Source of the DNA: Candidatus Bathyarchaeia archaeon
Lineage (GTDB): Archaea > Thermoproteota > Bathyarchaeia > 40CM-2-53-6
Reading direction: 5' to 3'
Length of the DNA stretch: 64,000 nt
Assembly: GCA_049513715.1 (NCBI GenBank)
Contig: JBEKVV010000003.1
Location: 224,001 to 288,000 of the forward strand
Below the pieces are notes generated by a model. That model did no database searches. It saw nothing but the letters and a program-made list of their open reading frames with translations, and was not told where the DNA came from. This document shows, one piece after another, positions 4,525 through 21,321 of the stretch. How positions within the stretch are numbered: position 1 is the first letter of the stretch; each line of letters starts with the position of its first letter. The translations under genes and the position numbers were made by a program.

Positions 4525-4974
4525 TTATGTGAGATTCACCATGTCTTCAGCAGCGGCTAGAATCCTGGTCAGAACGGAGAGAAACGAATCCATCTCCTGG
4601 GACGTAACCTGACGGGTCGTCCTCTCGATGAACTTGTCATGAAGTTTCAAGGCTCGCCTTAGCTTTTCGCCACCTTTGCCTGTTATAGCCACGTTGATCA
4701 TCCTTCTATCCGCGTCGCTTCTCACACGCCGAACAAGCCCGGCTTCTTCAAGATTGTCGATAACGATAGTCATGCCTGGGGCGGTCATGCTCTGCTCCTT
4801 AGCTAGCATTACCATCGAGGACGGGCCTAGTCCTGAGAGCATCCTAAGCGCCCGCAACTCAGCGGGAGTCAACTCCACGACCAAAAGGTTTCTCTCAACA
4901 AGCCTGTTCCATCTCTTGAATCCATCAGATAATGTGCGAACTAGATCGTACTTGGAGAGAGAGGTCTGCCGCAT
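4525..4974 (-). CDS. MarR-family transcriptional regulator
   Basis: LTPAELRAL...MTIVIDNLEEAGLVRRVRSDADRR..VAITGKG is the MarR wHTH signature. Confidence 0.92.
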   Translation of the reverse strand: MRQTSLSKYDLVRTLSDGFKRWNRLVERNLLVVELTPAELRALRMLSGLGPSSMVMLAKEQSMTAPGMTIVIDNLEEAGLVRRVRSDADRRMINVAITGKGGEKLRRALKLHDKFIERTTRQVTSQEMDSFLSVLTRILAAAEDMVNLT

Positions 4975-4975
4975 T

Positions 4976-5080
4976 TTACTTTTCCGCCAGTGTTCGCATC
5001 ATCAAATCTCGGTTGTTGTTGACGCCTCGAAAGACCGAGTTCAGCGCGATAATCGCTACGTTGACATCTATTGACGCCAT
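4976..5080 (-). pseudogene. 34-codon ORF coupled to marR; possible remnant of a DHA2-type MFS transporter N-terminus
   Basis: MASIDVNVAIIALNSVFRG resembles the TM1 motif of 14-TMS drug exporters. Its TAA ends 1 nt before the marR ATG. Confidence 0.3.
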
Positions 5081-5136
5081 GATTCCGCCGTCCAAATGAC
5101 TAAAGCTGATCTGCCCTAAGTCTATCCATGCTGAAA

Positions 5137-5165
5137 CTTAAGCCTTTAATGATTAATAGTTTAAG
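5137..5165. promoter_or_regulatory. 29-bp palindromic operator, copy 1 (marR/amtB1 divergent region)
   Basis: CTTAA-GCCT-TTAATGATTAA-TAGT-TTAAG. The same architecture recurs at 14113-14141. Confidence 0.75.
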
Positions 5166-5299
5166 CTTCCGCCCGAAACGACCTCGTCGATGGTACTTTA
5201 CTTTTTGCTACCTCTGAAACGGGGCTTATACTCTCTATAGATGGGTTTTATAACAGAAGACTCTGCGCCTTGGCAGCATTCAAGTTACGGGTGATATAT

Positions 5300-6529
5300 G
5301 TGGCGCTGAACTCCGGAGACATCGCTTGGGTAATTTCCGCTACCGCATTGGTCATGATAATGACTCCGGCTGTGGGGTTCTTTTATGGTGGCCTCGTTCG
5401 AAGGAAGAACCTAGTCTCAACTATAGTTCAATGTCTGGCAATTTTCGCAGTCGTAAGTTTGGTCTGGGCACTTTGGGGGTACAGTATTGCCCTCGGTCCA
5501 TCAGTAAATGGTTTCATCGGAAGCCTAGCTGACTTGGGATTGAATAATGTTGGAGAGGCACCAAACCCAGGCTATTCAAACACGATTCCTGAACTTCTGT
5601 ATTTCGCCTTCCAACTTAAGTTCGCGGCTATCACACCCGCTCTTATCATTGGAGCGTTTGCAGAGAGAATTCGCTTCAAGTCTTTGATGCTCTACGTTGT
5701 GTTATGGACGACCTTCATCTACTGTCCAATCGCACACTGGAATTGGGCCGTGGGAGGCTTTCTAAGGTCGCTTGGTGTTGTTGACTTCGCCGGAGGTTTG
5801 GTAGTCCATACTTCAGCAGGGATCTCAGCACTTGCAGCTGCCTTAGTGGTTGGTAGAAGAAAAGGCCTAGGCGCGAAGAAACAGGAGATGAGACCTGCAG
5901 ATATCCCCTACGTGATTCTAGGTGCGTCAATACTCTGGTTCGGATGGTTCGGTTTCAACGCCGGCAGCGCGCTCGCGGCTGACGCCTTGGCGGTGAACGC
6001 GTTGGTTGTTACCAACCTTGCCGCAGCAGCGGCCGCAGTTAGCTGGATGCTAGTTGACGTGTACACGAAAGGCAAACCGTCGGCGGTCGGAATCTCAGTT
6101 GGAGCAGTCTGCGGGTTAGTGGCGATAACGCCAGCTTCCGGGTACGTGGGTCCGATGCCGTCCATAATCATCGGCCTCGTGGCCGGAGCCCTGTGCAACT
6201 ACGTTGCTAGCCTGAGAGTTAGAACAACCATGGACGACACGTTGGACGTATTTGCCGCGCATGGAGTAGGCGGAATGTGGGGAACGATAGCAACCGGACT
6301 ATTTGCAGCGACCGCAATCAACGCGGCGGGACCGAATGGGCTCTTCTACGGTAATCCCGCGCAACTAGGAATTCAAGCCTTCGCTGTCGCCATAGTCGCT
6401 CTCTTCGCGTTCTGCGGTTCCTACGTATTGCTTAAGATCGTTAACGCGATTTCGCCCCTCCGCGTGAGCGAGAAAGAAGAGGATACCGGACTGGACGTCT
6501 CACAGCATGGCGAAGAAGCGTACGCGTAA
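5300..6529 (+). CDS. amtB: Ammonium transporter (Amt), copy 1
   Basis: MTPAVGFFYGG, DFAGGLVVH, WFGWFGFNAGS, DDTLDVFAAHG and HGEEAY; both pore histidines present. GTG 5300 follows a GGTGA RBS. Confidence 0.97.
   Translation: MALNSGDIAWVISATALVMIMTPAVGFFYGGLVRRKNLVSTIVQCLAIFAVVSLVWALWGYSIALGPSVNGFIGSLADLGLNNVGEAPNPGYSNTIPELLYFAFQLKFAAITPALIIGAFAERIRFKSLMLYVVLWTTFIYCPIAHWNWAVGGFLRSLGVVDFAGGLVVHTSAGISALAAALVVGRRKGLGAKKQEMRPADIPYVILGASILWFGWFGFNAGSALAADALAVNALVVTNLAAAAAAVSWMLVDVYTKGKPSAVGISVGAVCGLVAITPASGYVGPMPSIIIGLVAGALCNYVASLRVRTTMDDTLDVFAAHGVGGMWGTIATGLFAATAINAAGPNGLFYGNPAQLGIQAFAVAIVALFAFCGSYVLLKIVNAISPLRVSEKEEDTGLDVSQHGEEAYA
5351..5421 (+). repeat. 71-bp perfect inverted repeat, left copy (inside amtB1)
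   Basis: GTCATGATAATGACTCCGGC...CTAGTCTCAAC is identical to the reverse complement of 13890-13960. Confidence 0.95.
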
Positions 6530-6570
6530 ATAGGTAAAGTCAGTGCAGTTACGCTCTGGAGTGACAACAG

Positions 6571-6960
6571 ACGAAATTCACTAGGCCCTCTGTTCTGCTG
6601 CTCCTTGTCATCGTTTTCGGCATGGGTTTCTCCGGCTACCTGACCACCGGAGTACTCCTGTCTAACTCATGTCCCCTGAACGGTGGATGCACACGTGTGC
6701 TCGGCATTCCGTCTTGCATGTACGGGTTCACCATGTACACCATTATGCTGATCATTGTTCTGTTGACATCGATGGGGAAGATAGTGTTCGGAACGGGCCG
6801 GAAGCTCGTCCTTCTTGTGTCGGTTATGGGGATGCTGTTTTCCGGTTCCTTGCTCGTCCTGGAATTCGTGAACAAAAGCCCCTTAACAATCTGCGCCGCA
6901 GGATTCTCGATGTTCCTGTTGATTTTCCTTTTGACCCGCCTGTTCTGGAAGGAGCAGTAA
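6571..6960 (+). CDS. VKOR-like four-TM membrane protein
   Basis: FSGYL..CPLNGGC..VLGIPSCMYG is VKOR-like. The first TM helix lies upstream of ATG 6622, and the frame is open back to ACG 6571 after a GGAGTGA RBS. Confidence 0.6.
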   Translation, partial: TKFTRPSVLLLLVIVFGMGFSGYLTTGVLLSNSCPLNGGCTRVLGIPSCMYGFTMYTIMLIIVLLTSMGKIVFGTGRKLVLLVSVMGMLFSGSLLVLEFVNKSPLTICAAGFSMFLLIFLLTRLFWKEQ

Positions 6961-7021
6961 TTCGACGAACATAGGACGACTGGAGCGGGCCGGACTGTTC
7001 TAAGCACGACAAGTGTTTTCG

Positions 7022-8155
7022 TTAGACGAATCTGTTGGGAGAAGTGAGCCTGAGTATCGGATCGGGCCGACCTTCGAACGCGACAGGCATCCTGCTTCCT
7101 GCTGCAAATCCCATTACTATACCCTCGTCTCCCATGGCTACGGCTGAATAGACGTGGTTGCGAACGGGGCCGATAATTGGTAGCAGGTCCTTAGTTTTCG
7201 AATACGAGTCCCCCCACTGATGTTCCCGCTCCAAACTCACTCCGCTGTAGTACCACGCGAGCTTCTGCTTGATGTTCTTGGGTTGATAGAGTTCCAACGC
7301 TAAGCGGCGCCCAAGGGGATAGAGAATGTCATACTTTTCTTCCATCGTCCAGATCACTTTGTCGCAAGGCCATATCTTCTTGGTCTCTGGCATCTCGCGG
7401 CTTGCTATGACAACACTCATTTCTTCCTCGAAGTGCTTTTCCAAGCCATAGAATGGTTTCAGGTTTGTTGCCATAATCAAACGACTGCAACGTACTTTCG
7501 CGCGTGGCGATCGGACGGTTACGTGATCTTGTTCTTCCTCAAAACCGATCAATTGGGAATTCTCAAAGACAGGTATATTGAATCTTTTGGCAAGCCCCAC
7601 CGCGAACTGAGCAGGGTGAAGCACGGAGCAGATTTCAAATGACAGGCCTGCGAGAAACTTGTTCCCGGTGAATGACTGTTCTATGTCCTCGCTTGCGTAC
7701 AGCTCGGTTTTTATCCCGATGCATGCAAGCTCCGTCTTCTCCCTTTCCAGTCTGCTCTCCTCTGCGTCGTTCTTGGCGACCATGATTGCTCCCGTGTGGC
7801 GAAGCCCGCAATCTATTCGGTTTTTCTCAATTATCGAGACCATCTGTGTGATTGTCTTTTCAGTTTCTTTCCAGAGCGTTGTCGCATCTTCTTTGCCGTA
7901 CCGTTCGACCGCTTCGACAAAGTTGCCACCCGAGCCATAATATAGAATGCCCGAGCTCGCACCAGTAGCTGCCGCGCCCACCTCATCCCTCTCGAGTACT
8001 AGAACCTTGTAACCAGCGTTCTGCAAATGAAAGGCGCAGGATATCCCCGCTATGCCGGCGCCCACAATTGCTACATCAACATTCGCATCTCGCTCTAGAA
8101 TTGGAAAACGTTCTGTGACAGGCCAAAGAGGATTAGCCTGCATGCCCGACATCAC
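7022..8155 (-). CDS. FAD-dependent oxidoreductase (DAO/PuuB-like amine oxidase family)
   Basis: DVAIVGAGIAG dinucleotide-binding motif, GAAATGASSG, and TKDLLPIIG. Confidence 0.85.
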   Translation of the reverse strand: MMSGMQANPLWPVTERFPILERDANVDVAIVGAGIAGISCAFHLQNAGYKVLVLERDEVGAAATGASSGILYYGSGGNFVEAVERYGKEDATTLWKETEKTITQMVSIIEKNRIDCGLRHTGAIMVAKNDAEESRLEREKTELACIGIKTELYASEDIEQSFTGNKFLAGLSFEICSVLHPAQFAVGLAKRFNIPVFENSQLIGFEEEQDHVTVRSPRAKVRCSRLIMATNLKPFYGLEKHFEEEMSVVIASREMPETKKIWPCDKVIWTMEEKYDILYPLGRRLALELYQPKNIKQKLAWYYSGVSLEREHQWGDSYSKTKDLLPIIGPVRNHVYSAVAMGDEGIVMGFAAGSRMPVAFEGRPDPILRLTSPNRFV

Positions 8156-8215
8156 GGGCCAAGGATTGCGAGTCGCTATTCAAAGATTACCTCACCTAGT
8201 CACTGGAGGCGGCTA

Positions 8216-9283
8216 TTAGGTCGAAGGGGGCGTAGGCGTGTAGATTTCGTAGAATTTCCTATATTTCCACACTACAACAGAGACTAGCCAAGACACAAGA
8301 AAGATGGCTATTATGCCGAACCCTATGGTTTCGAAATCTAGGCCGCTAAGCCAACCCCAATAGGTGCCTGTCAGGTTCAATTCGTTAGCTATGACCTGGA
8401 GAAGCTCAGCGGTGCCAATTGCCAACGCGACAAGCACTGAAATGACCGTCACGGTCAGGTTGTAGTAGATTTTACGAATTGGATTAAGAAAGGCCCAACC
8501 ATAGGCCAAACGCATTGTCACACCATCGGTTGTATCGACTAGGACCATTCCGCATGTGAACATGAAAGGCAATATGAGAATCATCCACACTGGAACAGCG
8601 GAAGAGACACCGACACCAACACTGATCGCTATGAGAGCGATTTCAGTTGCAGTATCAAAACCTAATCCGAAGAGGATACCGATGGGGTAAATCTGCCACG
8701 GTCGCTTGACGATCTTGAACAATGGTCGAAAGTAGCGGTTTAGGAATCCGCGATTGTCCAGAAGATTCTCAAGTTCAGTCTGGTTCATCTTTCCGCGTTT
8801 CAGTTCCTTGAAGATTCGGTAAATGCTGAAAACGATGATCATGTTGACTATTCCTATCAACCACAGGAACACTCCTGAAACAGTTGTTCCGATTATTGTG
8901 CCACTGCTCTCCAAGACAGGTATATGACCAACTATCGTTCGAGTTGCAAAAATCAACGCCACGATAAGCCCAACCACAATTGTCGAATGCCCTAACGAGA
9001 ACCACATGCCAACAGTGAAAGGGCGTTGATTCTCCTGCATCAGCTTTCTTGTCGTATTGTCAATCGCAGCGATGTGGTCAGCATCAACACCATGACGCAG
9101 GCCGAACACATATGTGACTATTCCAAGGCCCGCAAGTAAAACCGAGAGCTTACCTATGATTGTCGAGGCGATAAAACCGAAGGCCGTCGCTAGCCCGATT
9201 AATGAGTAAATGGAAACTAGTTTGAGCTTCTCATTCGGCGAAAGCCCCGCCGTCGAATAGACGAGACCAGTTTCTTTGGACAT
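8216..9283 (-). CDS. nixA: High-affinity nickel/cobalt permease (HoxN/NixA, NiCoT)
   Basis: Signatures GLRHGVDADHIAAID, FSLGHSTIV and LFGLGFDTATE. Confidence 0.95.
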   Translation of the reverse strand: MSKETGLVYSTAGLSPNEKLKLVSIYSLIGLATAFGFIASTIIGKLSVLLAGLGIVTYVFGLRHGVDADHIAAIDNTTRKLMQENQRPFTVGMWFSLGHSTIVVGLIVALIFATRTIVGHIPVLESSGTIIGTTVSGVFLWLIGIVNMIIVFSIYRIFKELKRGKMNQTELENLLDNRGFLNRYFRPLFKIVKRPWQIYPIGILFGLGFDTATEIALIAISVGVGVSSAVPVWMILILPFMFTCGMVLVDTTDGVTMRLAYGWAFLNPIRKIYYNLTVTVISVLVALAIGTAELLQVIANELNLTGTYWGWLSGLDFETIGFGIIAIFLVSWLVSVVVWKYRKFYEIYTPTPPST

Positions 9284-9316
9284 CTCAGAGGAAACGCTCC
9301 TTCCACAATCGGCGTA

Positions 9317-9344
9317 GTATTACTAATGGCAGAATGCGTAATAA
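9317..9344. promoter_or_regulatory. Putative NikR operator
   Basis: GTATTAC-N14-GTAATAA dyad between divergent nixA and nikR, downstream of a minus-strand TATA-like CTTTAATAT (9346-9354). Confidence 0.7.
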
Positions 9345-9394
9345 CGATATTAAAGAGTACCGAACCATTCCCAGACCTCGGTGACATAGTGTCC

Positions 9395-9802
9395 ATGGCT
9401 AGAGTCGAGAGGATTAGCTTCTCAACACCTCCTCTACTCTTGAAGCAATTCAACGATTCCCTCAAAATGCTTGGGTACAAGGATCGATCAAAGGCGTTGC
9501 AGATTGCGATGAGGAACTTCATATCGGAATACTCATGGAGAAAGGAGAGGGGCAAACAGGCGGCCGGAGCGATCTTGCTGACGTACGACCACGAATCACA
9601 TGGCCTTCAAGATGCCCTAACGGACATTCAGCACCACTTTCGGAGTATAGTGAATTCGACCACTCATATCCATATTGACGAATCCCACTGTTTGGAAATA
9701 GTGTCCGTGAGAGGAAAAATGGAGCTGATCCAAGCATTAGCCAAGGAGTTAATGAAAAAGCGTGGTGTGACGCAACTCAAGTTGTCAACTGTTGCCGTTT
9801 AG
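9395..9802 (+). CDS. nikR: Nickel-responsive regulator NikR
   Basis: RHH RISFST...GYKDRSKALQIAMR and Ni-site YDHE...QH...HIH....CLE. Start set at ATG 9395 (GTG 9389 is an alternative). Confidence 0.93.
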   Translation: MARVERISFSTPPLLLKQFNDSLKMLGYKDRSKALQIAMRNFISEYSWRKERGKQAAGAILLTYDHESHGLQDALTDIQHHFRSIVNSTTHIHIDESHCLEIVSVRGKMELIQALAKELMKKRGVTQLKLSTVAV

Positions 9803-9932
9803 AGTAGTAGATTGGTTTGCAGCGCTGTTAGTGGGATTCGAATCCACTGGCGGTAGGACCTTGATAACTCGTACTTTCACTTAACTCTCTTACTTATCTC
9901 CACACGGGGTCTCTTATTTTCTGTGAGCAACG

Positions 9933-10256
9933 TTGCCGATTAGACCTGTACTTTTGAAGACTTTGGGCAGCGAGGCCCGGTTGAGGATTTTGTTGGTTCT
10001 CGCCAGAAACCGCGGTGAAGACTTATCCATCTATAAGATTGCGAAATTCAGCGGGTTGGATCGGAAGGTCATAAGGAAGCATTTAGGCAAACTAATCGAC
10101 GCGAACCTCGTCCACATGAAAAACTACGGCCCCATAGCCGTGTACAGCATAAGCAGCGACAATGCCCATGTCCAACGAATCATCGACCTATTCAATGAGG
10201 CAAGGCTACTCGCACAAGTTCCCGTCCAACTACACTGGTACGACATCCGCGCCTAA
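9933..10256 (+). CDS. ArsR-like winged-helix protein
   Basis: LGSEARLRILLVL...SIYKIAKFSGLDRKVIRKHLGKLIDANLV. Confidence 0.75.
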   Translation: MPIRPVLLKTLGSEARLRILLVLARNRGEDLSIYKIAKFSGLDRKVIRKHLGKLIDANLVHMKNYGPIAVYSISSDNAHVQRIIDLFNEARLLAQVPVQLHWYDIRA

Positions 10257-10453
10257 ACCCCACCAATTTCCAGAACCACCCCCCCCATTGCCGTAAACGA
10301 AAACCAACATGTCACGCTTATTAGAGACGCATCTGTATTGGCGGACAAGTTAGGTATAAGGGCTGAAGCGAACGTCCGACCGTAACCATCCGCGTTGACG
10401 TCTAAGTTTTCTCCCGAAGAACTAGCTGAACGAAACTGAACGAGGTGAAACGC

Positions 10454-10660
10454 ATGAGCGATGAACGTTCCTTCAACAAGCCAGTTGAGGAAGGCAAAGA
10501 ATACGAACTCGAAATCAAAGAGACCAGCCGTCGCGGAGACGGAGTCGCAAGAATCGAGGGCTTCGTAGTCTTCGTCCCACAAACCAAACCTGGCGATAAA
10601 GTGAAGGTCAAAATCAACTCCGTTGGACCCAGATTCGCAACCGGAGAAGTTGTCCAATAG
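10454..10660 (+). CDS. Single TRAM-domain RNA-binding protein (archaeal cold-shock-like)
   Basis: PVEEGKEYELEI...RRGDGVARIEGFVVFVP.TKPGDKVKVKI....PRFATGEVV. GAGGTG RBS before ATG 10454. Confidence 0.92.
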   Translation: MSDERSFNKPVEEGKEYELEIKETSRRGDGVARIEGFVVFVPQTKPGDKVKVKINSVGPRFATGEVVQ

Positions 10661-10661
10661 A

Positions 10662-10697
10662 GGAATGGGGAGTTGTCCTCCCTATTCTCCACTTTTT
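10662..10697 (+). terminator. Hairpin plus T-tract after the TRAM gene
   Basis: GGAATGGGGAG-ttgtc-CTCCCTATTCT forms an 11-bp stem (2 G-U pairs), followed by ccacTTTTT. Confidence 0.55.
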
Positions 10698-10773
10698 GTC
10701 CATTACGGGTGCTTTATTACGGATGAGGCCCATATTACGTCATAGTTGAGCTATCATAGCATCACTATCGAAT

Positions 10774-11427
10774 TTGCAGAGACTTAAATCAAGTACACAA
10801 GACAGGGACCTCGTATACTTACTCCGACTCGCAAAGAAGCACAGCTTAACAGCAAGTATTCTTTACGACTCTTTGCAAGCCACGTGGCAGCGCGGCAAAG
10901 CGCAATGCGGGAAACTCAAAATTGAGATGCGACTACGCGGAGTAAGTTCCTCGACATACTTGTTCTCGGTTGGCGGGAAGCTGTTCTCGCAAGCAAACCT
11001 TCAGAATGACTCAATTAGGAAACTGAAAAGACTCCCAGAAGAATTATCAACATATTTGGACGAAGACAAACGATCTGCACGCAGATTGGACGCGAACTCC
11101 ATAAGTGCCATTAGCAATTTACGATATGGACTGAGCGGTGTATCTTTCAGAGCTCGTGTGGCAAGGAAATCTGGAGTTAGAGCTGTGACCTCGAAGGATG
11201 GAACCCCTCTGTTGGTATGCGATGTAACACTCTCTGATGGGACAGGCGAGATTCCGTTGGCCGTTTGGAATAGTCAAATTGGCACCGTCTTTGAGGGCGA
11301 CGTAGTGCAGATTCAGAACGCGCGAGTCAGGAGCTTTAGAGGCCAAATTCAGCTTTCACTTGGCAGAAAGACCGGGCTTCTTACAGTTGTCGAACCCGTC
11401 AACCGAGAACTTCTGATAGCTGCCTGA
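10774..11427 (+). CDS. OB-fold single-stranded DNA-binding (SSB/RPA-like) protein with N-terminal extension
   Basis: C-terminal LSDGTGEIPLAVWN...GDVVQIQNARVRSFRGQIQLSLG is an RPA-type OB fold. Confidence 0.8.
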   Translation: MQRLKSSTQDRDLVYLLRLAKKHSLTASILYDSLQATWQRGKAQCGKLKIEMRLRGVSSSTYLFSVGGKLFSQANLQNDSIRKLKRLPEELSTYLDEDKRSARRLDANSISAISNLRYGLSGVSFRARVARKSGVRAVTSKDGTPLLVCDVTLSDGTGEIPLAVWNSQIGTVFEGDVVQIQNARVRSFRGQIQLSLGRKTGLLTVVEPVNRELLIAA

Positions 11428-11800
11428 TTCTTCAAGGACCGAAGAACGGCGAACATCAGAACTGAGAGTCTGTCCCTTCTGAACCAAAGCCTAGTGCGTC
11501 GCTGACTCTTTCCAGCTGGTTCTTCATATCCTCGAGTTCAACTTTGTTATCGCGACCTTCATTTCTCCCATGTCGGCAACAATCCTACCCATAACCGGCC
11601 CATGTTAACTTCAAGCTTCTCCAACGGGGGCTTAATTCAGGCCTCTATACTCATGATCAAATTCTAGAAGTCTTCACTGAGTTCTGGCATATCTGTCGCC
11701 AGAGTTTGGTCTTCTGTCCCGGAACCCTCTGCGCCATACCACGTCTTCTTAAGAGTTACTTTGACTCATGCACTGCGACTGCAGAAAGGAACAGCTGAGA

Positions 11801-12487
11801 ATGTCAGTATACGCTCACATGGTGGAATTCTCGGTCAGCAGAAGCCGAGCGAATGCATACCTAGCCATCCCAGAGGGAGGAGACGTGCCGGGCGTGTTGG
11901 TTCTTCCTGCCTGGTGGGGCTTGACGGACTTCTTCAAAGGCGTGTGTGTTAGGCTCGCGAAATCTGGTTTCGTTGCTTTGGCGCCAGATATTTACCATGG
12001 CAAAACCGCAACAACAATCTCAGAAGCCAAACGCCTCCGGTCCAAGCTGAACAGCGCAAAACTAAACAAGGAGTTGGATTCCGCCACTGATTATTTGTTG
12101 GCTACGTTTGCTGAGACGGGAGGCAGGATTGGCGTGGTGGGGTTTTCACTAGGTGCATCGTGGGCGCTGTGGTTGGCTACGGCGAGACCGAAAGAGGTGG
12201 CAGCAGTGGTCACTTTCTATGGCACGAGCAAAGAAGACTACAAGAAGGCTCATGCCGACTTCCTCGGACATTACGCCGAGCACGACGAGTGGGAGCCACT
12301 TGATTCTGTCCGCGAGTTGGAGAAACGTCTTCGGGCAGCCGGTAAAGAAGTTGAGTTCAACGTATACCCAAGCACGACGCACTGGTTCTTCGAGGAAAAT
12401 CAACCGAACGCTTACAACCCTGAAGCCGCTAAACTCGCTTGGGAGAGAACCCTGCGCTTCCTACACACTCACTTGGATTTACAGTGA
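11801..12487 (+). CDS. Dienelactone hydrolase family protein
   Basis: PAWWGL, GFVALAPD, GFSLG nucleophile elbow, and YPSTTHWF...AAKLAWERTLRFL. Confidence 0.9.
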   Translation: MSVYAHMVEFSVSRSRANAYLAIPEGGDVPGVLVLPAWWGLTDFFKGVCVRLAKSGFVALAPDIYHGKTATTISEAKRLRSKLNSAKLNKELDSATDYLLATFAETGGRIGVVGFSLGASWALWLATARPKEVAAVVTFYGTSKEDYKKAHADFLGHYAEHDEWEPLDSVRELEKRLRAAGKEVEFNVYPSTTHWFFEENQPNAYNPEAAKLAWERTLRFLHTHLDLQ

Positions 12488-12775
12488 CTCGCTCGGAAGG
12501 AGGAGAAACAATGTTTCGATCTGCGGGAAGCTGAGGATTAGGTTGTCAGAGGAAATTGAAGATCACCTAGACTCGGGCATCGGATGAAAGGGGTGTTTGA
12601 TACCCTATGGAAGCGCAATGAGAAGCCAAAGGGGAAGCTCAAGATATCTTCGATATCAGGAAAAAAGCCCCTGCAGTTAATGAGATCGAACAGCAGGCGA
12701 GCTTATCGACCCATAATGCTCTAGTTCGATGCACAGGATACTTGAAAGCCGTTTGCTAGCCTTTGATCATTGGTT

Positions 12776-14008
12776 CTACATGTTCGTGTATGCTTCTTCG
12801 CCGTGTTGACTTATGTCCAAGCCTGCATCTTCGTCCTTCGGACTAACCCTCACCGGAGTGAAGACATTGATTATTCTTAGCAGCACGTATGTCCCGACGA
12901 AGGCGAAAAATCCCACGACAACTACTCCGAATACTTGCACTATGAACTGATACATATTTCCGTACAGCAGCCCGTTCGGGCCAGCTGCATTGATGGCGGC
13001 AGATGCAAAGATCCCCGTCGCTATTGATCCCAAGATCCCGCCTGCACCGTGGCAGGCGAATACATCCAGCGAGTCATCAAGTCGTGTCCTTGCGCGCCAA
13101 CCCGCCACAAAGTTACAAACAATACCAGCTGCGGCTCCTATTATGATGGAGGCCATCGGTCCAACATACCCAGAAGCAGGCGTTATCGTCGCTAACCCGC
13201 AGACTGCTCCAACTGAGATTCCGACCGCCGACGGCTTGCCCTTCCGGACCCAGTCAGTAATCATCCAACTCATCGCACCAGCCGCAGCTGCCAGATTTGT
13301 TACCAGCAAAGCGTTAGCAGCTAAACCGTCTGCCGCAAGAGCACTTCCCGCGTTGAAACCAAACCAACCGAACCACAAGATTGCAGCCCCCAAAATAACG
13401 AAGGGAACATTATTGGGCCTCATCTCCTTCCGCGGATTCACGTCCTTTCGTCTACCGATAAATATGGCCGCAGCAAGTGCCGAGACTCCGGCCGTCTCGT
13501 GCACAACCAAACCCCCAGCAAAGTCCACCACTCCCAATACCCTTAACCAACCACCCACAGCCCAGACCCAGTGCACGACTGGAACATAGACGAAAGTCGT
13601 CCACATTACAACGAAAATCAAGAGCGACTTAAAGCGAACTCTCTCAGCAAACGCTCCTATGATCAGTGCCGGGGTGATTGCGGCGAACTTGAGCTGAAAA
13701 GCCACATAGAGAACTTCCGGAATTGTAGGGGCATAGGCTGAGTTCGGTGTGATTCCGACATTGACCAATCCGAAATCAGATAGATTTCCGATAATTCCTC
13801 CAATTGAGTTTCCTCCAAGTGCAAGACTATAGCCCCATATTGCCCAAACCAGGCTTATGACGGCGAATATGGCGAGACACTGAACAATTGTTGAGACTAG
13901 GTTCTTCCTTCGAACGAGGCCACCATAAAAGAACCCCACAGCCGGAGTCATTATCATGACTAGAGCTGTAGCTGCGAGTACCCATGCTGTGTCTCCCGTA
14001 TTCAGCAA
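12776..14008 (-). CDS. amtB: Ammonium transporter (Amt), copy 2
   Basis: Same Amt signatures as copy 1 (DFAGGLVVH, DDSLDVFACHG, HGEEAY). Convergent with amtB1. Confidence 0.97.
   Translation of the reverse strand: MLNTGDTAWVLAATALVMIMTPAVGFFYGGLVRRKNLVSTIVQCLAIFAVISLVWAIWGYSLALGGNSIGGIIGNLSDFGLVNVGITPNSAYAPTIPEVLYVAFQLKFAAITPALIIGAFAERVRFKSLLIFVVMWTTFVYVPVVHWVWAVGGWLRVLGVVDFAGGLVVHETAGVSALAAAIFIGRRKDVNPRKEMRPNNVPFVILGAAILWFGWFGFNAGSALAADGLAANALLVTNLAAAAGAMSWMITDWVRKGKPSAVGISVGAVCGLATITPASGYVGPMASIIIGAAAGIVCNFVAGWRARTRLDDSLDVFACHGAGGILGSIATGIFASAAINAAGPNGLLYGNMYQFIVQVFGVVVVGFFAFVGTYVLLRIINVFTPVRVSPKDEDAGLDISQHGEEAYTNM
13890..13960 (-). repeat. 71-bp perfect inverted repeat, right copy (inside amtB2)
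   Basis: Exact reverse complement of 5351-5421. Confidence 0.95.
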
Positions 14009-14112
14009 CTAATCGCACCTTAACGGTCGATGTTGCCACAGATTGAGCGCGGTTATAACCTTGGCCGTTAGATTTCATTTACCAAAATCGCGGAGGCCTA
14101 CGCGTGCATTAG

Positions 14113-14141
14113 CTTAATGCCTTAATGATTAAACGTTTAAG
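14113..14141. promoter_or_regulatory. 29-bp palindromic operator, copy 2 (upstream of amtB2)
   Basis: CTTAA-TGCC-TTAATGATTAA-ACGT-TTAAG, extended by AG/CT on the two sides. Confidence 0.75.
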
Positions 14142-14343: not shown

Positions 14344-14811
14344 TCACGTCAGCTCCGACAGCCTCAGTCGGACCAGGTCAGCGAGTTTTGCAGCGGCTTC
14401 TTTCACTGATGAACTCATAGTCTCCGTGAAAGTGAATTCAGGCTCAATGTCAATGGTAAAGAGCGTTATTGTCATTGGTATCTTGCTGGGGTCAAACTTT
14501 CTGTAAAGCTCCAATGCAGTTGGAAATCCTGTGACATGTGTTGAAGAAAATTGGTCGGCGTTTTTCAGTTCTGCTGCGTTGAACTCTGAGATCCGCCCGA
14601 CTTCCGAGTCCTTTTGGATGATAGAGTCAACCACGAGCACGTTCTCGTAACCTAGCATTTCCTCGACCATTCTCAAGCCGCCAACACTTAGTTCCTTGAA
14701 TTCTAACCCAGGCAGCTGTGAAAGGCTGTCCTTGAGCATTCTGACTATGTGTATTCCTACGCCGTCGTCTCCCATGATCGGGTTGCCGACGCCTAGGACC
14801 AGAGTCTTCGT
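14344..14811 (-). CDS. [NiFe]-hydrogenase maturation endopeptidase (HybD/HycI family)
   Basis: xKTLVLGVGNPIMGDDGVG, VVDS and STH motifs. The conserved N-terminus lies upstream of ATG 14775 and begins at ACG 14811 (or CTG 14820). Confidence 0.9.
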   Translation of the reverse strand, partial: TKTLVLGVGNPIMGDDGVGIHIVRMLKDSLSQLPGLEFKELSVGGLRMVEEMLGYENVLVVDSIIQKDSEVGRISEFNAAELKNADQFSSTHVTGFPTALELYRKFDPSKIPMTITLFTIDIEPEFTFTETMSSSVKEAAAKLADLVRLRLSELT

Positions 14812-14823
14812 ATCAAACAGCCT

Positions 14824-16284
14824 TCATGGTCTTCGTAGGTTGCGCAATAGGTTTCGGTTCTTGTCGTAGATTTTGACATCCAAAGGCATTTGCCCGGGTA
14901 GCGTATGCGTGGCGCATGCGAAGCATGGGTCGTATGCCCTAAAAGCCATCTCAACCATGTTCAGAACCCCGTCCGAGACATCGCCTTTCTTGATGAGGCC
15001 TTCTGCGGCTTGTTTGATTGACATGCTAATGGCAGCGTGGTTGTTCGTGGTAGCCACGATCAAGTTCACGTTCTTCACGAGGCCTCTCTCGTCTGTCTTA
15101 TAGTGGTGGATCAAGGTTCCACGAGGTGCTTCAACGCAACCTACACCCTCGTCGGGGATTTCGGTTGGAATCGTGCGAACGTTTGGATTCGTGACTTCCG
15201 GGTCGCGGCTTAACTCAAGCATTCTTTCAGCTGCGTACATCAACTCTACCAAACGAGCCCAGTGTGTTGCGAGCGTTGAGTGAACCGGTTTCTTGCCAAG
15301 GGTTTCGTACATTTTTGTGTATTCGGCTTGCGCAAGAGGCGTGGCCATTCCGTCAGACACATTGAGTCGTGCTAGTGGCGTTGCACGGTAGACCCCACTG
15401 TTCTTTCCGCCGACTAGCCCTCTCCATCCTATGGATTTGAGGTATGGGTACTTCAGGTATGTCCAGGGTTCAACGTGTTCAGCGATGTACTTCTGGTAAT
15501 CAGCCGCGGGGTATTTCGCAAACTCCTTGCCTTCGGGGTCGACGATTCTGATGTTTCCGTCGTAGAAGTTGACTCGGTTCTGCGAGTCAACGGTGCCCAT
15601 GTAGTATGTTTCGGTCGCATACATGTCGCTCGTGATGAGGTTCATGTATTCTTTGTTGTGGAGGACGAGGTCGTCGAAGATTTTCAATGTAAACTGGGCG
15701 AACTCGACTTCAGACTTGGCGATTTCTTCAATCCTTGACCTTTCGGTTTCGTTGATTGCTTTGCTAACGCCGCCTGGGAGTCCGAAGCTTGGGTGAACTC
15801 TCTTTCCGCCGATAATTGCGATCGCATCTAGTGCATCGGAGCGGTGTTTTATGACTGAGGTTCCGACCTCTGCGCCCACTTTTCCTATTACGCCGAGTAT
15901 GTTTCGTTCTGCTTTGGGTGCAGTAGGGCCCATTATGAAGTCGGGTCCTGCGAGGATGTAGAAGTGGGTCGTGTGGTCGGCGACGAAGAAGGCGCTGTAG
16001 AGAAGTTCTCGGAGCTTCTTCGCTGCAGGTGGTGGGTCAACGTGAAAGAGGGCGTCCAGCGCCTTAGTTGCGGCAACGTGGTGGGCTTCTGGGCAGACTC
16101 CGCAAATTCGACTGGTAATGTCAGGCATTTCCTCGACTGGTCTGCCCTCGCAGAATTTCTCGAAGCCTCGCAGTTCTGGGACTTGGAAGTACGCGTTCTC
16201 AACGTTTCCTTCGTCGTTCAGGAAAATCGAAATCTTTCCGTGCCCTTCGAGCCTTGTGACAGGATTTATTGTTACGGTCTTCAT
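14824..16284 (-). CDS. mvhA: F420-non-reducing (group 3c) [NiFe]-hydrogenase large subunit
   Basis: TRLEGHG, RGFEKF, RICGVC and DPCFACATH followed by a cleavable C-terminal tail. Confidence 0.96.
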   Translation of the reverse strand: MKTVTINPVTRLEGHGKISIFLNDEGNVENAYFQVPELRGFEKFCEGRPVEEMPDITSRICGVCPEAHHVAATKALDALFHVDPPPAAKKLRELLYSAFFVADHTTHFYILAGPDFIMGPTAPKAERNILGVIGKVGAEVGTSVIKHRSDALDAIAIIGGKRVHPSFGLPGGVSKAINETERSRIEEIAKSEVEFAQFTLKIFDDLVLHNKEYMNLITSDMYATETYYMGTVDSQNRVNFYDGNIRIVDPEGKEFAKYPAADYQKYIAEHVEPWTYLKYPYLKSIGWRGLVGGKNSGVYRATPLARLNVSDGMATPLAQAEYTKMYETLGKKPVHSTLATHWARLVELMYAAERMLELSRDPEVTNPNVRTIPTEIPDEGVGCVEAPRGTLIHHYKTDERGLVKNVNLIVATTNNHAAISMSIKQAAEGLIKKGDVSDGVLNMVEMAFRAYDPCFACATHTLPGQMPLDVKIYDKNRNLLRNLRRP

Positions 16285-17237
16285 TGTTTCGTTCTCCTCA
16301 TGAGTGATTGGGCAAGGCCAAACCTGTAAAACGTCCCGATGGGGTCGACAACTCCGTCTACGAGTTTCTGAATATCCTCTTCAGTTTCCGCATCGAAGAC
16401 CGAGGAGAGTGCTGAGAGCATCTTTGCGCCTTGGTCTAGGACATTGGGTAATGGACCATAGCAGCCTCTGCAAGGCATGTTGGCGTCTAGGCAGACTGCC
16501 TCGCAGCCGCCTCTTGTTGCCGGGCCCATGCAAATGATACCTTGCTCAAGCAGGCACTTCTTGGGATCCTGTATGGTTTCGTAAGTTCGGACTAATTTCG
16601 CGACTTTTCTATCAGTTTTTTCACGCTTGCATTCATGGCAGAGCGATTTGTCGGAAGCCCCTAGAATAGCGCCTTTTGGTGGCAATTTGCCGCTCACGAA
16701 GGTTTCGATTACTTTTCCGACCTGTGGTCCGACAGGAGGACAACCAGGTACAAAGTAATCGACATCGACCGTTTGCTCCAGTGTCTTGACGGTGTTATAG
16801 AACTCGGGAATTGTAAGCGTTCCTTCGGGTGCCTCGAATTTCGATTGTGGGTAAGTGTTTTCAGGGTTCTCTGTGGTGGGGGTTTCCTTGTAGGACGACT
16901 TGAAGATCAGTTCCCGACTTTTTGTGTTCGCGAGTGCTGGAATGCCGCCTCCACATGCGCAGGAACCAAAAGCAACTAGTAGTTTGGATTTCGCTCTGAG
17001 CAGTTTCGCTACGTGCTCGTTTTCAGAGTTTTGAATCGCGCCGTTGAAGAACGTCACGTCGATGTTCTTGTCGGGCATGGCTTCGAGGTCTGAGTATTTG
17101 TAGTCAAGTGCAGCTGGCCAGTAGACTATGTCGATCTTTTCTTTCAGGTCGAGCAGTTTGGTTCCTAGTTCGAGGATTGCGATTTCGCATCCGCCGCAGC
17201 TACTTGCCCAGTTGAATGCAACCTTCGCTTTCGTCAT
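16281..17237 (-). CDS. mvhG: Group 3c hydrogenase small subunit
   Basis: SCGGC, GSCA, PGCPP and C-terminal Cys cluster CMGPATRGGCEAVC...CRGCYG. ATG 17237 overlaps the mvhD stop. Confidence 0.95.
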   Translation of the reverse strand: MTKAKVAFNWASSCGGCEIAILELGTKLLDLKEKIDIVYWPAALDYKYSDLEAMPDKNIDVTFFNGAIQNSENEHVAKLLRAKSKLLVAFGSCACGGGIPALANTKSRELIFKSSYKETPTTENPENTYPQSKFEAPEGTLTIPEFYNTVKTLEQTVDVDYFVPGCPPVGPQVGKVIETFVSGKLPPKGAILGASDKSLCHECKREKTDRKVAKLVRTYETIQDPKKCLLEQGIICMGPATRGGCEAVCLDANMPCRGCYGPLPNVLDQGAKMLSALSSVFDAETEEDIQKLVDGVVDPIGTFYRFGLAQSLMRRTKQ

Positions 17238-17680
17238 TATTGCGCCACCACTTCTATCTTCGACTTCCAATTCAGAGGCCCAAGTGTTCGAATGTTCTCA
17301 GTCATACTGTCCACGATCCTGGCGTATCTTTCCCCTTCAGACGCGGACACCCACTCCAATCTGACGCGGTCCTTTTCGATACCGAACTGATCGAGCATTT
17401 TCTGGAGTAGTTTGAACCGCCTCATGGTCTTCACGTTGCCGTTAGTGTAGTGACAGTCTCCGGGGTGGCATCCTGCGATCAGAACACCGTCTGCACCTGA
17501 GGCAAGCGCCTTCAGAATTAATGTTGGGTCAACGCGGCCTGAACAGTTGACTCTGATGGGGTTGATGTTTGGTGGGTACTTGATTCTGCTCGTGCCGGCC
17601 AGGTCGGCGCCAGTGTAGGCGCACCACTTGCAGAGGAAGCCAACGATTTTTGGTTCAAATCGTGTGGACAATTCCATCAT
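17237..17680 (-). CDS. mvhD: Hydrogenase iron-sulfur subunit MvhD
   Basis: FLCKWCAY.GADLAG, RVNCSGR, GCHPGDCHY and WVSASEG. Confidence 0.96.
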   Translation of the reverse strand: MMELSTRFEPKIVGFLCKWCAYTGADLAGTSRIKYPPNINPIRVNCSGRVDPTLILKALASGADGVLIAGCHPGDCHYTNGNVKTMRRFKLLQKMLDQFGIEKDRVRLEWVSASEGERYARIVDSMTENIRTLGPLNWKSKIEVVAQ

Positions 17681-17683
17681 CTC

Positions 17684-19642
17684 TCAAGCGCAAATCGCCT
17701 CAACTTCTGCTAGTAGTTGGCGGTTTGTGAAGTTCTGTTGTTCAATTGCGCCTGACGGGCATGATGCGACGCAGACTCCGCATCCTTTGCAGAGAGCCAC
17801 TGTGATTTCTGCAACATTCTTTGTGCTGTCGAAGGTTATCGCGTTGTATGGGCATAGGCCGACGCAGATCTTGCAGCCGGAGCAGGACTCTTCGTCGATT
17901 AAGGCGACCGTGGGTTCCAGTTCCACTTCTTTCCTGTCGATGAGTGAGAGCGCGTTCGCTGCTGCGGCCGCCCCCTGAGCAACGCTGTCTGGAATATCCT
18001 TCGGACCTTGACAGGAGCCGGCAATGTATACGCCGTCGGCAGCTGTTGAGACTGGGGCGAGTTTCGGGTGCTTCTCCAAGAAGAAGCCATCCTTGCTTCG
18101 ACTAATCGAGAAGGTGTGGGCAACCTGAACTGCGTCTTTCCTTGGTTCCAAACCAAGGCTTAGTACGACCATGTCCACGGGTATCCTTCGAACAATGCCG
18201 AGAAGGGTGTCTTCTGCGACAACAACCAGTTTGCCCTTTTCGGATTGTTCTTGTGCTACATCAGTTACTTCAGCAACTCTGCCCCGGATGAAGGTGACAT
18301 CTTCTTCTAGCAGGCGCTTGTAGAATTCCTCATAGCCTTTCCCAAAGGCCCGCATGTCAATGTAAAACTCGTACACTTTCGCCTCAGTCTTCTCGTGCAC
18401 GAGGTGGGCTGTTTTCAGCGAATACATGCAGCAGACTCGGGAGCAGTACTCGTTGTAGTTCCTGTCTCGGCTTCCGACGCAGTGGACAATGGCCACGCTT
18501 TCTGGCGCTTTGCCGTTCTTGAGCAGTATCTTGCCGCCAGTTGGTCCAGAGGCGTGTGTGAGGCGCTCGAATTCCAGGCTTGTGATTACGTTGGGCAGCC
18601 TCTTGTAACCATATTCCTTGATGCGAGAGGGATCGAAGAGGTCGAAACCTGTGGCCAGAATTGCCGTGCCGACCTTCAAGTCCACGACTTTTTCCTTTTG
18701 ATCGAAATCGATGGCGCCACTCGGGCAGAATTTCTGGCAGACTTTGCAGACGCCCTTCGTGAAGTATAGGCAGTGTTCCCTATCGATTACAGGGGTGCTG
18801 GGAACAGCTTGCGGAAACGGCCTGTAAATTGCCTTTCTCTTTCCCATACCGCATTCGAATTCGCTTGGGACGCTTAATGGGCATTTGGTTTCGCAGGTGC
18901 CACAACCGTTGCATTTCTCCTCGTCGACGTACCGGGGTTTTCGGCGCACTGTTGCAGTGAAGTTGCCAACGTATCCTTGAAAACCGATAACCTCACTGTA
19001 TGACAGGAGGTCAATGTTCTCATGTTGGCCTACGAACACCATCTTTGGTGTGAGGATACAAGCAGCGCAGTCAAGCGTTGGGAACGTTTTGTCGAATCGT
19101 GCCATGTAGCCTCCGATCGTGGGCTCTTTCTCGACAAGGTACACGTGTTTTCCTGCATCTGCCAACTGTAATGCTGCTTCGATGCCGGTAATTCCGCCCC
19201 CCACGATCAGAACATTGGGGTCGACGGGAACTTTCTTGACTTCTATAGGCTCATTGTATGCGACCCGCATCACCGCGGCGCCAACAATCGCCTTCGCGCG
19301 CTCCGTAGCCAAGTGCCGGTCTTCCGTTATCCAAGAGCACTGTTCACGAATGTTGGCCATTTGAAACAGGAATGGATTGAGGCCCGCGTTGCCGACAGCG
19401 CGCCTGAAGGTTCCTTCATGCATTAGAGGGGAGCAGGATGCAACTACGACCCTGGTTAAGCTGAGTTCTCTGATGTCCTTCTTGATCATTTCTTGGCCGG
19501 GGTCGGAGCATGTGTATTGGTAATCTCGCGCGACTACTACGTCGGGGAGACCTTTGGCATAATCCGCTACTGCTTTGCAGTCGACCGTTTTTCCGATGTT
19601 TGTGCCGCAGTGGCAGACGTAGACGCCTATCTTTTCAGCCAT
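17684..19642 (-). CDS. hdrA: Heterodisulfide reductase subunit A (electron-bifurcating flavoprotein)
   Basis: GVYVCHCG, DKTFPTLDCAACIL, HCVGSRD...YCSRVCCMY and two ferredoxin domains. Confidence 0.97.
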   Translation of the reverse strand: MAEKIGVYVCHCGTNIGKTVDCKAVADYAKGLPDVVVARDYQYTCSDPGQEMIKKDIRELSLTRVVVASCSPLMHEGTFRRAVGNAGLNPFLFQMANIREQCSWITEDRHLATERAKAIVGAAVMRVAYNEPIEVKKVPVDPNVLIVGGGITGIEAALQLADAGKHVYLVEKEPTIGGYMARFDKTFPTLDCAACILTPKMVFVGQHENIDLLSYSEVIGFQGYVGNFTATVRRKPRYVDEEKCNGCGTCETKCPLSVPSEFECGMGKRKAIYRPFPQAVPSTPVIDREHCLYFTKGVCKVCQKFCPSGAIDFDQKEKVVDLKVGTAILATGFDLFDPSRIKEYGYKRLPNVITSLEFERLTHASGPTGGKILLKNGKAPESVAIVHCVGSRDRNYNEYCSRVCCMYSLKTAHLVHEKTEAKVYEFYIDMRAFGKGYEEFYKRLLEEDVTFIRGRVAEVTDVAQEQSEKGKLVVVAEDTLLGIVRRIPVDMVVLSLGLEPRKDAVQVAHTFSISRSKDGFFLEKHPKLAPVSTAADGVYIAGSCQGPKDIPDSVAQGAAAAANALSLIDRKEVELEPTVALIDEESCSGCKICVGLCPYNAITFDSTKNVAEITVALCKGCGVCVASCPSGAIEQQNFTNRQLLAEVEAICA

Positions 19643-20536
19643 TTACCTCACAACCTCCAAGTACTTCTCCAAGACTGGTTGACTTGGAATAAGTTCCTCG
19701 TTGATGCCCAGCGCTTTTCTGGAGAAGCCGAATGCTAGGCCTATGAGCTGTGTGAAATACAGAATTGGAATGTTGTATTTGGTTCCGAAGAGTTTGTTGA
19801 CGTTGCCTTGGTAGGCCTCAAGGGTCATGTGACAAAGCGGGCAAATGGTACTAATCATCTCCGCTCCATTGTCGAGAGCATTTTGAATCAGCCCTCTTGC
19901 AAGGTTCAAACCAACTTTCTCACTCGTCATCGCCAGCATTCCACCGCAGCATTTCGCTTTCATCGGGAAGTTCACTGGTTCAACTCCGAGCCAAGTGAGT
20001 AATCTGTCGAGTAGCATGGGGAACTCTTTGTCGTCGATCTCTCCGAAAGGTCGCGTCAATTGGCAGCCATAATACGGTGCGACCTTTAGGCCTGAAAGGG
20101 ACCGCTTCACTCTGGCCTTGATTTCGTTCTCTCCAACATCGTTAACAATTACTTCTAGCAGGTGCCTGACCTTGACGGTTCCGAAGTATTGAAGGTTGGC
20201 GGCTCTGAGCGCAGACCCGATGGTTCTCTTGAGCCTCGGGTTCTCGCCCATGTAGTGGTTAGTCTTGTTTAGGGTTGTAAGGCAGGCTGGACAAACAACC
20301 ACTAGGTCTTTCTTTTCTTTCTCGGCTAAAGCCAGATTTCTTGCCGAAAGAAGATGAGATTTGAGCTCATCGATGGACATGTACGCGGACGCGCCGCAGC
20401 AATTCCAATCATCTAATTCCGAGATTTTGACATCGAGGGCCTTGCAAACTATCCGCGTGGATTTGTCGTAGGCTTTGTTCATGCCCTCGACCGAGCAACC
20501 GGGATAGTATGAGAAGTCAGATTGAGTGTGTGACAT
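19643..20536 (-). CDS. hdrB: Heterodisulfide reductase subunit B
   Basis: Two CCG domains: YYPGC..WNCCG..CPAC and YYGC..KCCG..CPLC. Confidence 0.95.
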   Translation of the reverse strand: MSHTQSDFSYYPGCSVEGMNKAYDKSTRIVCKALDVKISELDDWNCCGASAYMSIDELKSHLLSARNLALAEKEKKDLVVVCPACLTTLNKTNHYMGENPRLKRTIGSALRAANLQYFGTVKVRHLLEVIVNDVGENEIKARVKRSLSGLKVAPYYGCQLTRPFGEIDDKEFPMLLDRLLTWLGVEPVNFPMKAKCCGGMLAMTSEKVGLNLARGLIQNALDNGAEMISTICPLCHMTLEAYQGNVNKLFGTKYNIPILYFTQLIGLAFGFSRKALGINEELIPSQPVLEKYLEVVR

Positions 20537-20537
20537 C

Positions 20538-21155
20538 CTAGCTCGCCTTCTTGGCGCCAAGTCCAGGCCGCAATCCGGCAATCATTGGCTCTGACATGCT
20601 TCCGGCGCATTTCTTCAATTCTGAGGTTCCCCGAATCTTGTGGGGAATCATGGGCAACCTTCCACGCAGGAACAGTTTCGTGGCCCTTGGAATCATGTTG
20701 AGCATTGCGAACGGGTTCGTCTTCAGGTAGAACTTGCTGACAAGCTCTGTTTCCGAAATCCTACCGTATTTGTCAACAATGTTGACGAACAACTTGGAAA
20801 GTACTGGCGCCGCGGCTCTTTTTGGTGTGAGCCCGAACTCAATCGCGAGGCGTTTCAATTCGTACATTACATCGGTTAGCTTGATTCCTGAGGGGCATCG
20901 GACGGTGCATGAGTAGCATGATGCGCATAGCCAGATCGTGTTACTCTTCAACACTCGATCTAGCATTCCGGCTCTAAGTGCGGCGATCACTTCTCGTGGT
21001 GTGTAGTCCATCGCGTAGCTTGTGGGGCATGAGGCGCTACAGGTTCCGCATTGTATGCATTCTTTGATTTTTTCGCCGCCCGGGATCCGGTAAATGTCTT
21101 GAAGGAAGACTTCGCCCAGCGAGTGGGCTTGCCGATCGGGGTGAGCAAGGGCCAT
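20538..21155 (-). CDS. hdrC: Heterodisulfide reductase subunit C
   Basis: CIQCGTCSASCP and WLCASCYSCTVRCP. Start trimmed to ATG 21155. Confidence 0.95.
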   Translation of the reverse strand: MALAHPDRQAHSLGEVFLQDIYRIPGGEKIKECIQCGTCSASCPTSYAMDYTPREVIAALRAGMLDRVLKSNTIWLCASCYSCTVRCPSGIKLTDVMYELKRLAIEFGLTPKRAAAPVLSKLFVNIVDKYGRISETELVSKFYLKTNPFAMLNMIPRATKLFLRGRLPMIPHKIRGTSELKKCAGSMSEPMIAGLRPGLGAKKAS

Positions 21156-21321
21156 AGGTATCGCTACGCGATTAAGACGAAGATTTCGGGTATATGTGTA
21201 GCATATAGAAATGCAAGACTGGTATAGCTTCGTAAGTACTAGTAAATACACTAAGTGCATAGCACTCCCACCAAACGCTCAAAGACCAATAATCACGCCC
21301 CACAACAGCGCAACGAAAACC

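Follow-up and report, generated by a model that had tools for sequence, protein, structure and literature searches.

A palindrome conserved at marR and amt promoters is the probable operator of a MarR-family regulator in one Bathyarchaeia family

Two copies of one palindrome precede the two ammonium transporter genes

We analysed a stretch of 64,000 nucleotides from Candidatus Bathyarchaeia archaeon (JBEKVV010000003.1, positions 224,001-288,000), hereafter the window, to which all coordinates below refer. Its two ammonium transporter genes, amt1 and amt2, are each preceded by a copy of one palindrome, and the copy at amt1 lies between that gene and a gene for a MarR-family regulator. Comparison of related loci shows that the palindrome is conserved in the marR-amt loci of one Bathyarchaeia family and indicates that it is probably bound as an operator by the adjacent MarR, a protein that would repress marR and probably activate amt from upstream. 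We consider the operator real, well supported and likely that of the adjacent MarR, serving a small, lineage-specific amt regulon in which an origin from an efflux operon is still visible.

The palindrome, CTTAA-N4-TTAATGATTAA-N4-TTAAG, was observed at 5137-5165 and 14113-14141. An earlier reading of the window (the original prediction) had described two 29-mers with identical arms, and direct reading bore this out: all 21 fixed positions are the same, the spacers are unlike, and CTTC directly follows both 29-mers. Copy 1 lies between marR (4525-4974, minus strand) and amt1, which starts at the GTG at 5300, and copy 2 precedes amt2, which starts at the TTG at 14008. The distances to these starts, predicted as 105-135 bp, were measured as 134 and 104 bp. 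On the minus strand GAAGCTTAAAC is present at both copies, and relative to their own amt the two copies have opposite orientations. Neither was assigned a strand in our feature list, where copy 1 scores 29.4 bits and lies 83 bp upstream of the amt1 TATA box, and copy 2 scores 30.6 bits and lies 55 bp upstream of the amt2 TATA box. Each amt has its own TATA-like box farther downstream of the operator (5248-5253; 14058-14053 on the minus strand).

The reported absence of a further copy in the window held at up to three mismatches, and no match was found in any of 100 shuffled windows. The same was true of the whole genome (2,793,248 bases, 11 contigs), in which the two copies are the sole matches at 0-3 mismatches and the exact TTAATNATTAA core is found nowhere else. 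The genome contains exactly two amt genes, with one operator copy before each.

The palindrome is conserved at amt promoters

For the comparison, amt genes were gathered from genomes and from 74 marR loci, and locus L068 (34% bacterial match) was dropped. Removal of short upstreams and near-duplicates reduced 127 amt starts to 78 upstream regions. An unlabelled and unseeded expectation-maximisation search of these regions for palindromes returned a 27-bp dyad, TTAR-N4-TTAATSATTAA-N4-YTAA, which is the same palindrome as in the window (log-likelihood 666, versus 472 for the next solution). A site of at least 15 bits was present in 68 of the 71 non-redundant amt upstreams in marR loci. These include all 42 amt genes divergent from marR (in 29 of them marR starts over 170 bp away from the site), all six downstream of marR and 20 of the 23 that are remote from it in tandem or convergent arrangement. 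Among amt genes that share no intergenic region with marR the site was found at 26/29, and in an Amt clade of only ~30% identity it was found at 10/10 members. Shuffled amt upstreams reached at most 14.2 bits in 390 trials, never 15, and the maximum in 52 marR coding regions was -7.0 bits. Some promoters contain tandem arrays of 2-3 sites in steps of 15 and 34 bp, and in a quick Amt tree genes with and without the site are interleaved in four clades.

We then asked how far the similarity of the two window copies extends. Over 100 bp their flanks match at 31-33% in either orientation, compared to 24/29 positions within the site, and blastn between the two intergenic regions returned the site as the sole match. 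Across amt sites the spacers vary while the arms are fixed. By these comparisons the palindrome is not a duplication relic, and the proposal that the motif is conserved upstream of related amt genes, as more than a trace of amtB duplication, is upheld by both the upstream counts and the flanks.

The site is linked to the adjacent MarR

The product of marR is a winged-helix regulator of 149 aa that matches PF12802 and PF01047 (MarR/MarR_2) above cut-off. Its AlphaFold model (predicted local distance difference test score 91) has the winged-helix MarR domain and fold and matches the structures of ST1710, BldR, MexR and SlyA. The closest solved structures are ST1710 (E 1.4e-18, template-modelling (TM) score 0.75) and BldR (3F3X; profile E 4e-15, TM 0.77). 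None of the named MarR subfamilies reaches its NCBIfam cut-off, the ESM Atlas returned generic MarR clusters only, and protein searches yielded no functional name. A dimer of this protein, or two adjacent dimers on the TTAA repeats, very probably binds the palindrome.

The marR promoters themselves carry the motif, with scores of 12 bits or more in 50 of the 53 regions upstream of marR. Most have a separate, weaker copy, GAAGAAC-TTAA-N4-CTAACCTTTAG-N4-TTAG, 76-98 bp before the marR start, whose left arm is TATA-like. In the window, the minus-strand left arm of copy 1, GAAG-CTTAAAC, is the probable B recognition element (BRE) and TATA box of marR. A copy at the regulator's own promoter is the usual autoregulatory layout and is better evidence for the link to MarR than co-occurrence within the genus.

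Within the genus, amt was found in 16 of 23 genomes and a MarR ortholog (60-66% identity in relatives) in eight, always beside amt. All eight have sites (G011, G013, G019 and G022 were scored on the matching loci L061, L064, L067 and L063). In the eight amt genomes without marR, and likewise in G023 and G036, the 3-15 kb retrieved around amt contained no site of more than 10 bits (10/10 loci). This co-occurrence is consistent with a link between site and MarR and not proof of it, because the relatives are not independent and the promoters of the marR-less genomes are wholly different. The MarR clade is present in 7 of 43 family genomes and in none of the other 257 class genomes sampled. Inspection of the recurring open reading frame (ORF) clusters of the 74 loci, by eye and not by family scan, revealed no other transcription-factor family. 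The motif search, the co-occurrence and the copies upstream of marR together support the earlier claim of a conserved cis-element linked both to amt genes and to the adjacent MarR.

Three further observations concern the marR loci. Most marR 5' leaders (e.g. L064, L092, L101) contain a conserved GTCGATA(G/T)CTTTCTAAC element ~50-60 bp before the start, which may have a function in the leader or may be what is left of a decayed MFS (major facilitator superfamily) gene. In 34/74 marR loci (L211:4030-4446) marR faces a convergent bacterioferritin-like gene, and in G016, which yielded no marR, this gene is still next to amt. The record of L063 is titled as a bacterium (Acidiferrales), yet the locus is typical of the archaeal marR-amt family, and the record is likely mislabelled.

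Promoter geometry suggests repression of marR and activation of amt

We determined the gap between site and TATA box in 62 site-bearing amt promoters. In the 23 promoters of the amt1 type, in which the position of the predicted amt1 TATA box (5248-5253, plus strand) is conserved, the gap is 61-63 bp (16), 72 bp (4) or 83 bp (3). In the others it is exactly 32 bp in 24, 46 bp in two and 55 bp at window amt2, whose predicted TATA box is at 14053-14058 on the minus strand. The remaining 12 of the 62 have gaps of 15, 66 or 97-115 bp or no TATA call. Within the amt1 type the three spacing classes differ by steps of 10-11 bp, which is suggestive of helical phasing (p about 0.01, post hoc). The left flank of the 28 second-class sites shows no conservation as a BRE.

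Since a separate, conserved TATA box follows 32-83 bp downstream of the site, the operator is unlikely to act by simply occluding the amt promoter. The original prediction that the dyad overlaps a promoter stood for marR, where BRE/TATA-like sequence is covered, and was not borne out for amt. At marR, MarR bound to the dyad would span the region from BRE/TATA to the start site and block TBP and TFB, resulting in autorepression; we infer this from the position of the dyad over both the expected start site and the BRE/TATA-like sequence. At amt, MarR bound 32-83 bp upstream of TATA would help the initiation complex assemble. The upstream position relative to the amt TATA box leads us to favour activation of amt by a modest degree, with repression a real if lesser prospect. 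For dual regulators in archaea, upstream sites are reported to go with activation and downstream sites with repression (PMC4158304), and BldR is described as a MarR-family activator (PMC6080066). A small molecule might switch MarR binding; we put the chances of this at about even, with a nitrogen-status signal being plausible.

A second palindrome, consensus CTCTCTATAGAGAG, lies at 5231-5244 (no strand assigned) and abuts the BRE/TATA of amt1-type promoters. It was found in 22 amt upstreams of this type (the window, L004, L006, L009, L010 and others), where it ends 3 bp before TATA, and it is absent from the other amt classes and from marR-less genomes. It may bind a partner factor. As a global nitrogen box it was rejected, as its 31 genome matches compare with 13-78 for shuffled matrices. 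One weak match (G000:C2:184361-184374), 87 bp before a gene that appears AbrB-PhoU-like by eye, is within this chance level. Yet another conserved promoter, with TGGTTAACCA just before TATA and behind a dCTP-deaminase-like gene, was observed in the amt upstreams of L008, L011, L013 and L019; it occurs in genomes with and without MarR.

The regulon is local

A matrix scan of the host genome (G000) returned the two sites (30.6 and 29.4 bits), with the next match at 12.1 bits and fewer weak matches than column-shuffled matrices gave. No site was found upstream of glnA, the glutamate synthase genes or gdh, where the best scores were 1.1, -1.6 and -9.8 bits. The original prediction had expected a wider nitrogen regulon with targets such as glnA and gdh; this part of it was not sustained, and the predicted regulon, as delimited by the scan, is local and consists of marR and amt.

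A wider regulon across the family was likewise rejected, since a relaxed pattern was no commoner than its reversed control in 59 family genomes. Nine off-locus matches among those listed were fetched, scoring 17.7 (G017), 16.2 (G006), 15.7 (G004), 13.3 (G013), 13.0 (G019) and 12.6 bits (G001), with three below 12. The off-locus matches, with a further one of 16.5 bits in G204, lie before unrelated genes or in coding sequence and were treated as chance. We also screened the sites of known nitrogen regulators. The NrpR operator GGAA-N6-TTCC is absent from both window promoters and was found in 1 of 78 amt upstreams, and the NrpR domain PF01995 was detected in 0/23 genus genomes and in the two methanogens used as a control. 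The palindrome is thus different from the NrpR site, as had been proposed. The AmtR, TnrA/GlnR and NtcA motifs matched 0, 0 and 3 of the 78 upstreams and neither window promoter.

MarR and its operator probably derive from an efflux operon

The nearest MarR paralogs (38-43%) sit in operons with DHA2-like MFS efflux genes, the DHA2 label being drawn from the MFS proteins of G013 and G022. The paralog operon of G013 has sites of 16.6 and 17.2 bits and no amt in the 6 kb fetched. In G316 (69% complete; amt and the amt-linked MarR were not found), an 8.6-bit site, the best in 11 kb, lies 5 bp before an MFS-marR operon, and a marR-efflux operon without amt in G166 has a 10.2-bit copy, the best in 6.3 kb. 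The corresponding promoter in G005 is off-contig.

The window itself retains a 5' remnant of a DHA2 (EmrB/QacA-like) MFS efflux gene at 5018-5089 on the minus strand, within a 34-codon ORF (5080-4976). It was identified by tblastn, with matches to the MFS genes of G316 (E=2.5e-8, 58% over 24 aa) and G022 (3e-7). The remnant occupies part of the stretch from site 1 to marR, at a distance of 57 bp from site 1 compared to 53 bp in the intact G316 operon, and G138 keeps 59 codons of the MFS gene (E 2e-14). The remnant and its matching distance suggest that site 1 is probably the old operator of an efflux operon from which the pump was deleted. Together with the weaker copies at amt-free marR-efflux operons, they suggest that MarR and operator were probably co-opted from such an operon. 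In this scenario, an MFS-marR efflux operon was the source of both regulator and operator, the transporter was deleted, and the site would then have been fixed at each amt gene that entered the locus. It is from the remnant and its geometry that we read the direction from efflux to amt, because the MarR tree has long branches and does not resolve the root.

Alternative explanations

Several observations weigh against the operator of an amt-activating MarR, or against its derivation from an efflux operon. The metagenome loci were chosen by marR, so that 68/71 gives the frequency of the site given marR and not the reverse; in addition, the scoring matrix was trained on the same upstream regions (in-sample) and the relatives are not independent. 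Four amt genes in marR-positive loci or genomes have no site (L085, L093, L100 and G011 (L012)), and five promoters of one Amt subclade have the marR-promoter copy only, 97-115 bp from TATA. The entire amt promoter differs in marR-less genomes, and site loss there may stem from rearrangement and not from relaxed selection. G138 (95% complete) has a MarR ortholog and a 23-bit site, and amt was not found in it; its contig begins 18 bp before the site. The copies in G316 and G166 are weak, and the MFS-marR paralog operon of G022 has no site above 10 bits. Helical phasing does not extend to all six spacing classes together (p 0.35). Finally, many amt-facing copies have a purine-rich left flank, as at the marR promoter copy, and could be an upstream promoter repressed by MarR.

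This last point leads to an alternative that we consider doubtful, in which MarR binds the dyad and represses amt until a nitrogen-shortage ligand releases it. The operator would overlap an upstream amt promoter formed by its own GAAG-TTAA arm, or repression would extend toward TATA by looping or spreading. Most MarR proteins are repressors released by a ligand, which agrees with this possibility, as do the frequent purine-rich flanks and the tandem arrays of 2-3 sites with their 15- and 34-bp steps. However, amt has a separate TATA box with its own conserved upstream sequence at a fixed spacing 32-83 bp downstream, and the 28 second-class sites are without a conserved BRE left flank. A different protein might also be responsible: an unlinked regulator, such as Lrp/AsnC or another global nitrogen factor, could bind the dyad and control marR and amt, leaving MarR as a co-regulated neighbour only. 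Co-occurrence would be expected here too if marR, amt and sites move as one block, a further factor may act at amt1 promoters, as the second palindrome shows, and the genome holds 14 matches to the MarR profile plus other regulators. A global factor should nevertheless have more sites than the two in the genome, and the relaxed pattern stays at control level in the 59 family genomes. Copies are found at marR-efflux operons without amt as well, and we regard an unlinked regulator as improbable.

We give very little weight to the remaining alternative, in which the amt sites have no part in amt regulation and are left over from promoter duplication or from the former promoter of the efflux operon. 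Site 1 does occupy the ancestral operator position of the MFS-marR operon, and in amt orientation the two window sites are followed by 30 bp that agree at 16/30 positions, a hint of common origin that also counts against the reading we prefer. Against a relic stand the difference between the 100-bp flanks and the site itself and the fixed spacing to the amt TATA box. In addition, 26/29 amt genes that do not face marR retain the site, as does the Amt clade of ~30% identity, and the arms stay constant where the spacers vary.

Comparison with known systems

What is known of amt control in archaea comes mostly from work on NrpR and GlnK in methanogens and halophiles. In methanogens NrpR binds GGAAN6TTCC at nif, glnA and glnK-amtB (PMC2723118), and in M. 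mazei it controls glnK1/amtB1, the coupling of glnK and amtB being common in bacteria and archaea (PMC10714827). The NrpR regulon, as these sources present it, resembles the system described here in having a palindromic operator at archaeal amt promoters. It differs in protein family and site, and here we found no glnA site, no adjacent glnK and an operator upstream of TATA. Bacterial AmtR (TetR family), TnrA/GlnR and NtcA are likewise dedicated transcription factors for amt, and belong to families other than MarR.

Among MarR proteins, ST1710 (StEmrR) of Sulfurisphaera tokodaii is the best match in both sequence and structure, and it is reported to bind an AT-rich site immediately in front of its own gene (PMC2724296). 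It is only 30% identical to the window protein and salicylate-bound in crystals, and the available text of PMC2724296 describes no amt target for it. BldR (3F3X) and BldR2 of Saccharolobus (Sulfolobus) solfataricus share the archaeal MarR fold; BldR is reported to be an activator, and BldR2 to bind its own promoter (PMC6080066). They differ in having 28% identity and in targeting aromatic-aldehyde detoxification genes, not amt; in the available text of PMC6792243 and PMC8157027, BldR is merely listed with aromatic aldehydes. MarR/EmrR operons with DHA2 MFS efflux genes hold the nearest paralogs, and the window keeps an MFS remnant, whereas here the efflux gene is deleted and the operator precedes ammonium importers. 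The inner TAATNATTA of the dyad matches a presumed BldR site.

Our literature search on MarR with ammonium transporters or Bathyarchaeia regulation did not turn up this arrangement, though regulon databases or supplements may contain an entry, and a search on Bathyarchaeia regulons found no paper. These data provide a predicted regulator-operator pair for Bathyarchaeia and suggest how Amt might be controlled where neither NrpR nor GlnK was detected. They also point to a regulator that changed its job from efflux pump to nutrient importer, with the remnant of the old gene still present. Tentatively, we propose that in a Bathyarchaeia lineage without NrpR and mostly without PII the pump was deleted from a MarR-MFS operon and MarR was reused as a ligand-gated activator of amt, its pocket either retuned to a nitrogen-status signal or still bound to an aromatic or stress ligand. 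If the latter were kept, ammonium import would answer to organic-compound stress and not to nitrogen. The significance is limited by the small, local regulon and its restriction to one family.

Ammonium transporters and neighbouring genes

Amt1 (5300-6529, plus strand; PF00909 4e-125, TIGR00836 above cut-off) and Amt2 (12776-14008, minus strand; PF00909/TIGR00836, by alignment) are 73% identical. By alignment Amt1 has the twin-His and Phe-gate residues, and H170, H321, F104, W149, F217 and S223 are invariant in 5/5 aligned Amts, so the residues of a conducting pore, with roles as in E. coli AmtB, are kept. PII (PF00543) was found in 2/23 genus genomes, neither with the MarR clade, and was absent from the host genome and all eight marR-positive genomes, with no glnK beside amt. 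Going by these genomes, several of them incomplete, these transporters may be held in check mainly at the level of transcription.

In G012 a second amt cluster contains two PII genes; no other pairing of amt with PII was seen in the genus. Some amt matches are split by frameshifts or stops (G012:C16 and C17, G018:C2, G036:C8). Amt2-type genes (L027, L028, L108, L113) often stand behind the 5' remnant of a distant (~30%) Amt gene and apparently use its promoter, a layout that suggests promoter capture by deletion. Elsewhere in the window, a NicO nickel transporter gene is divergent from nikR (8216-9802), and a Mvh/Hdr hydrogenase-heterodisulfide reductase cluster (14344-21260) ends 200 bp before copy 2.

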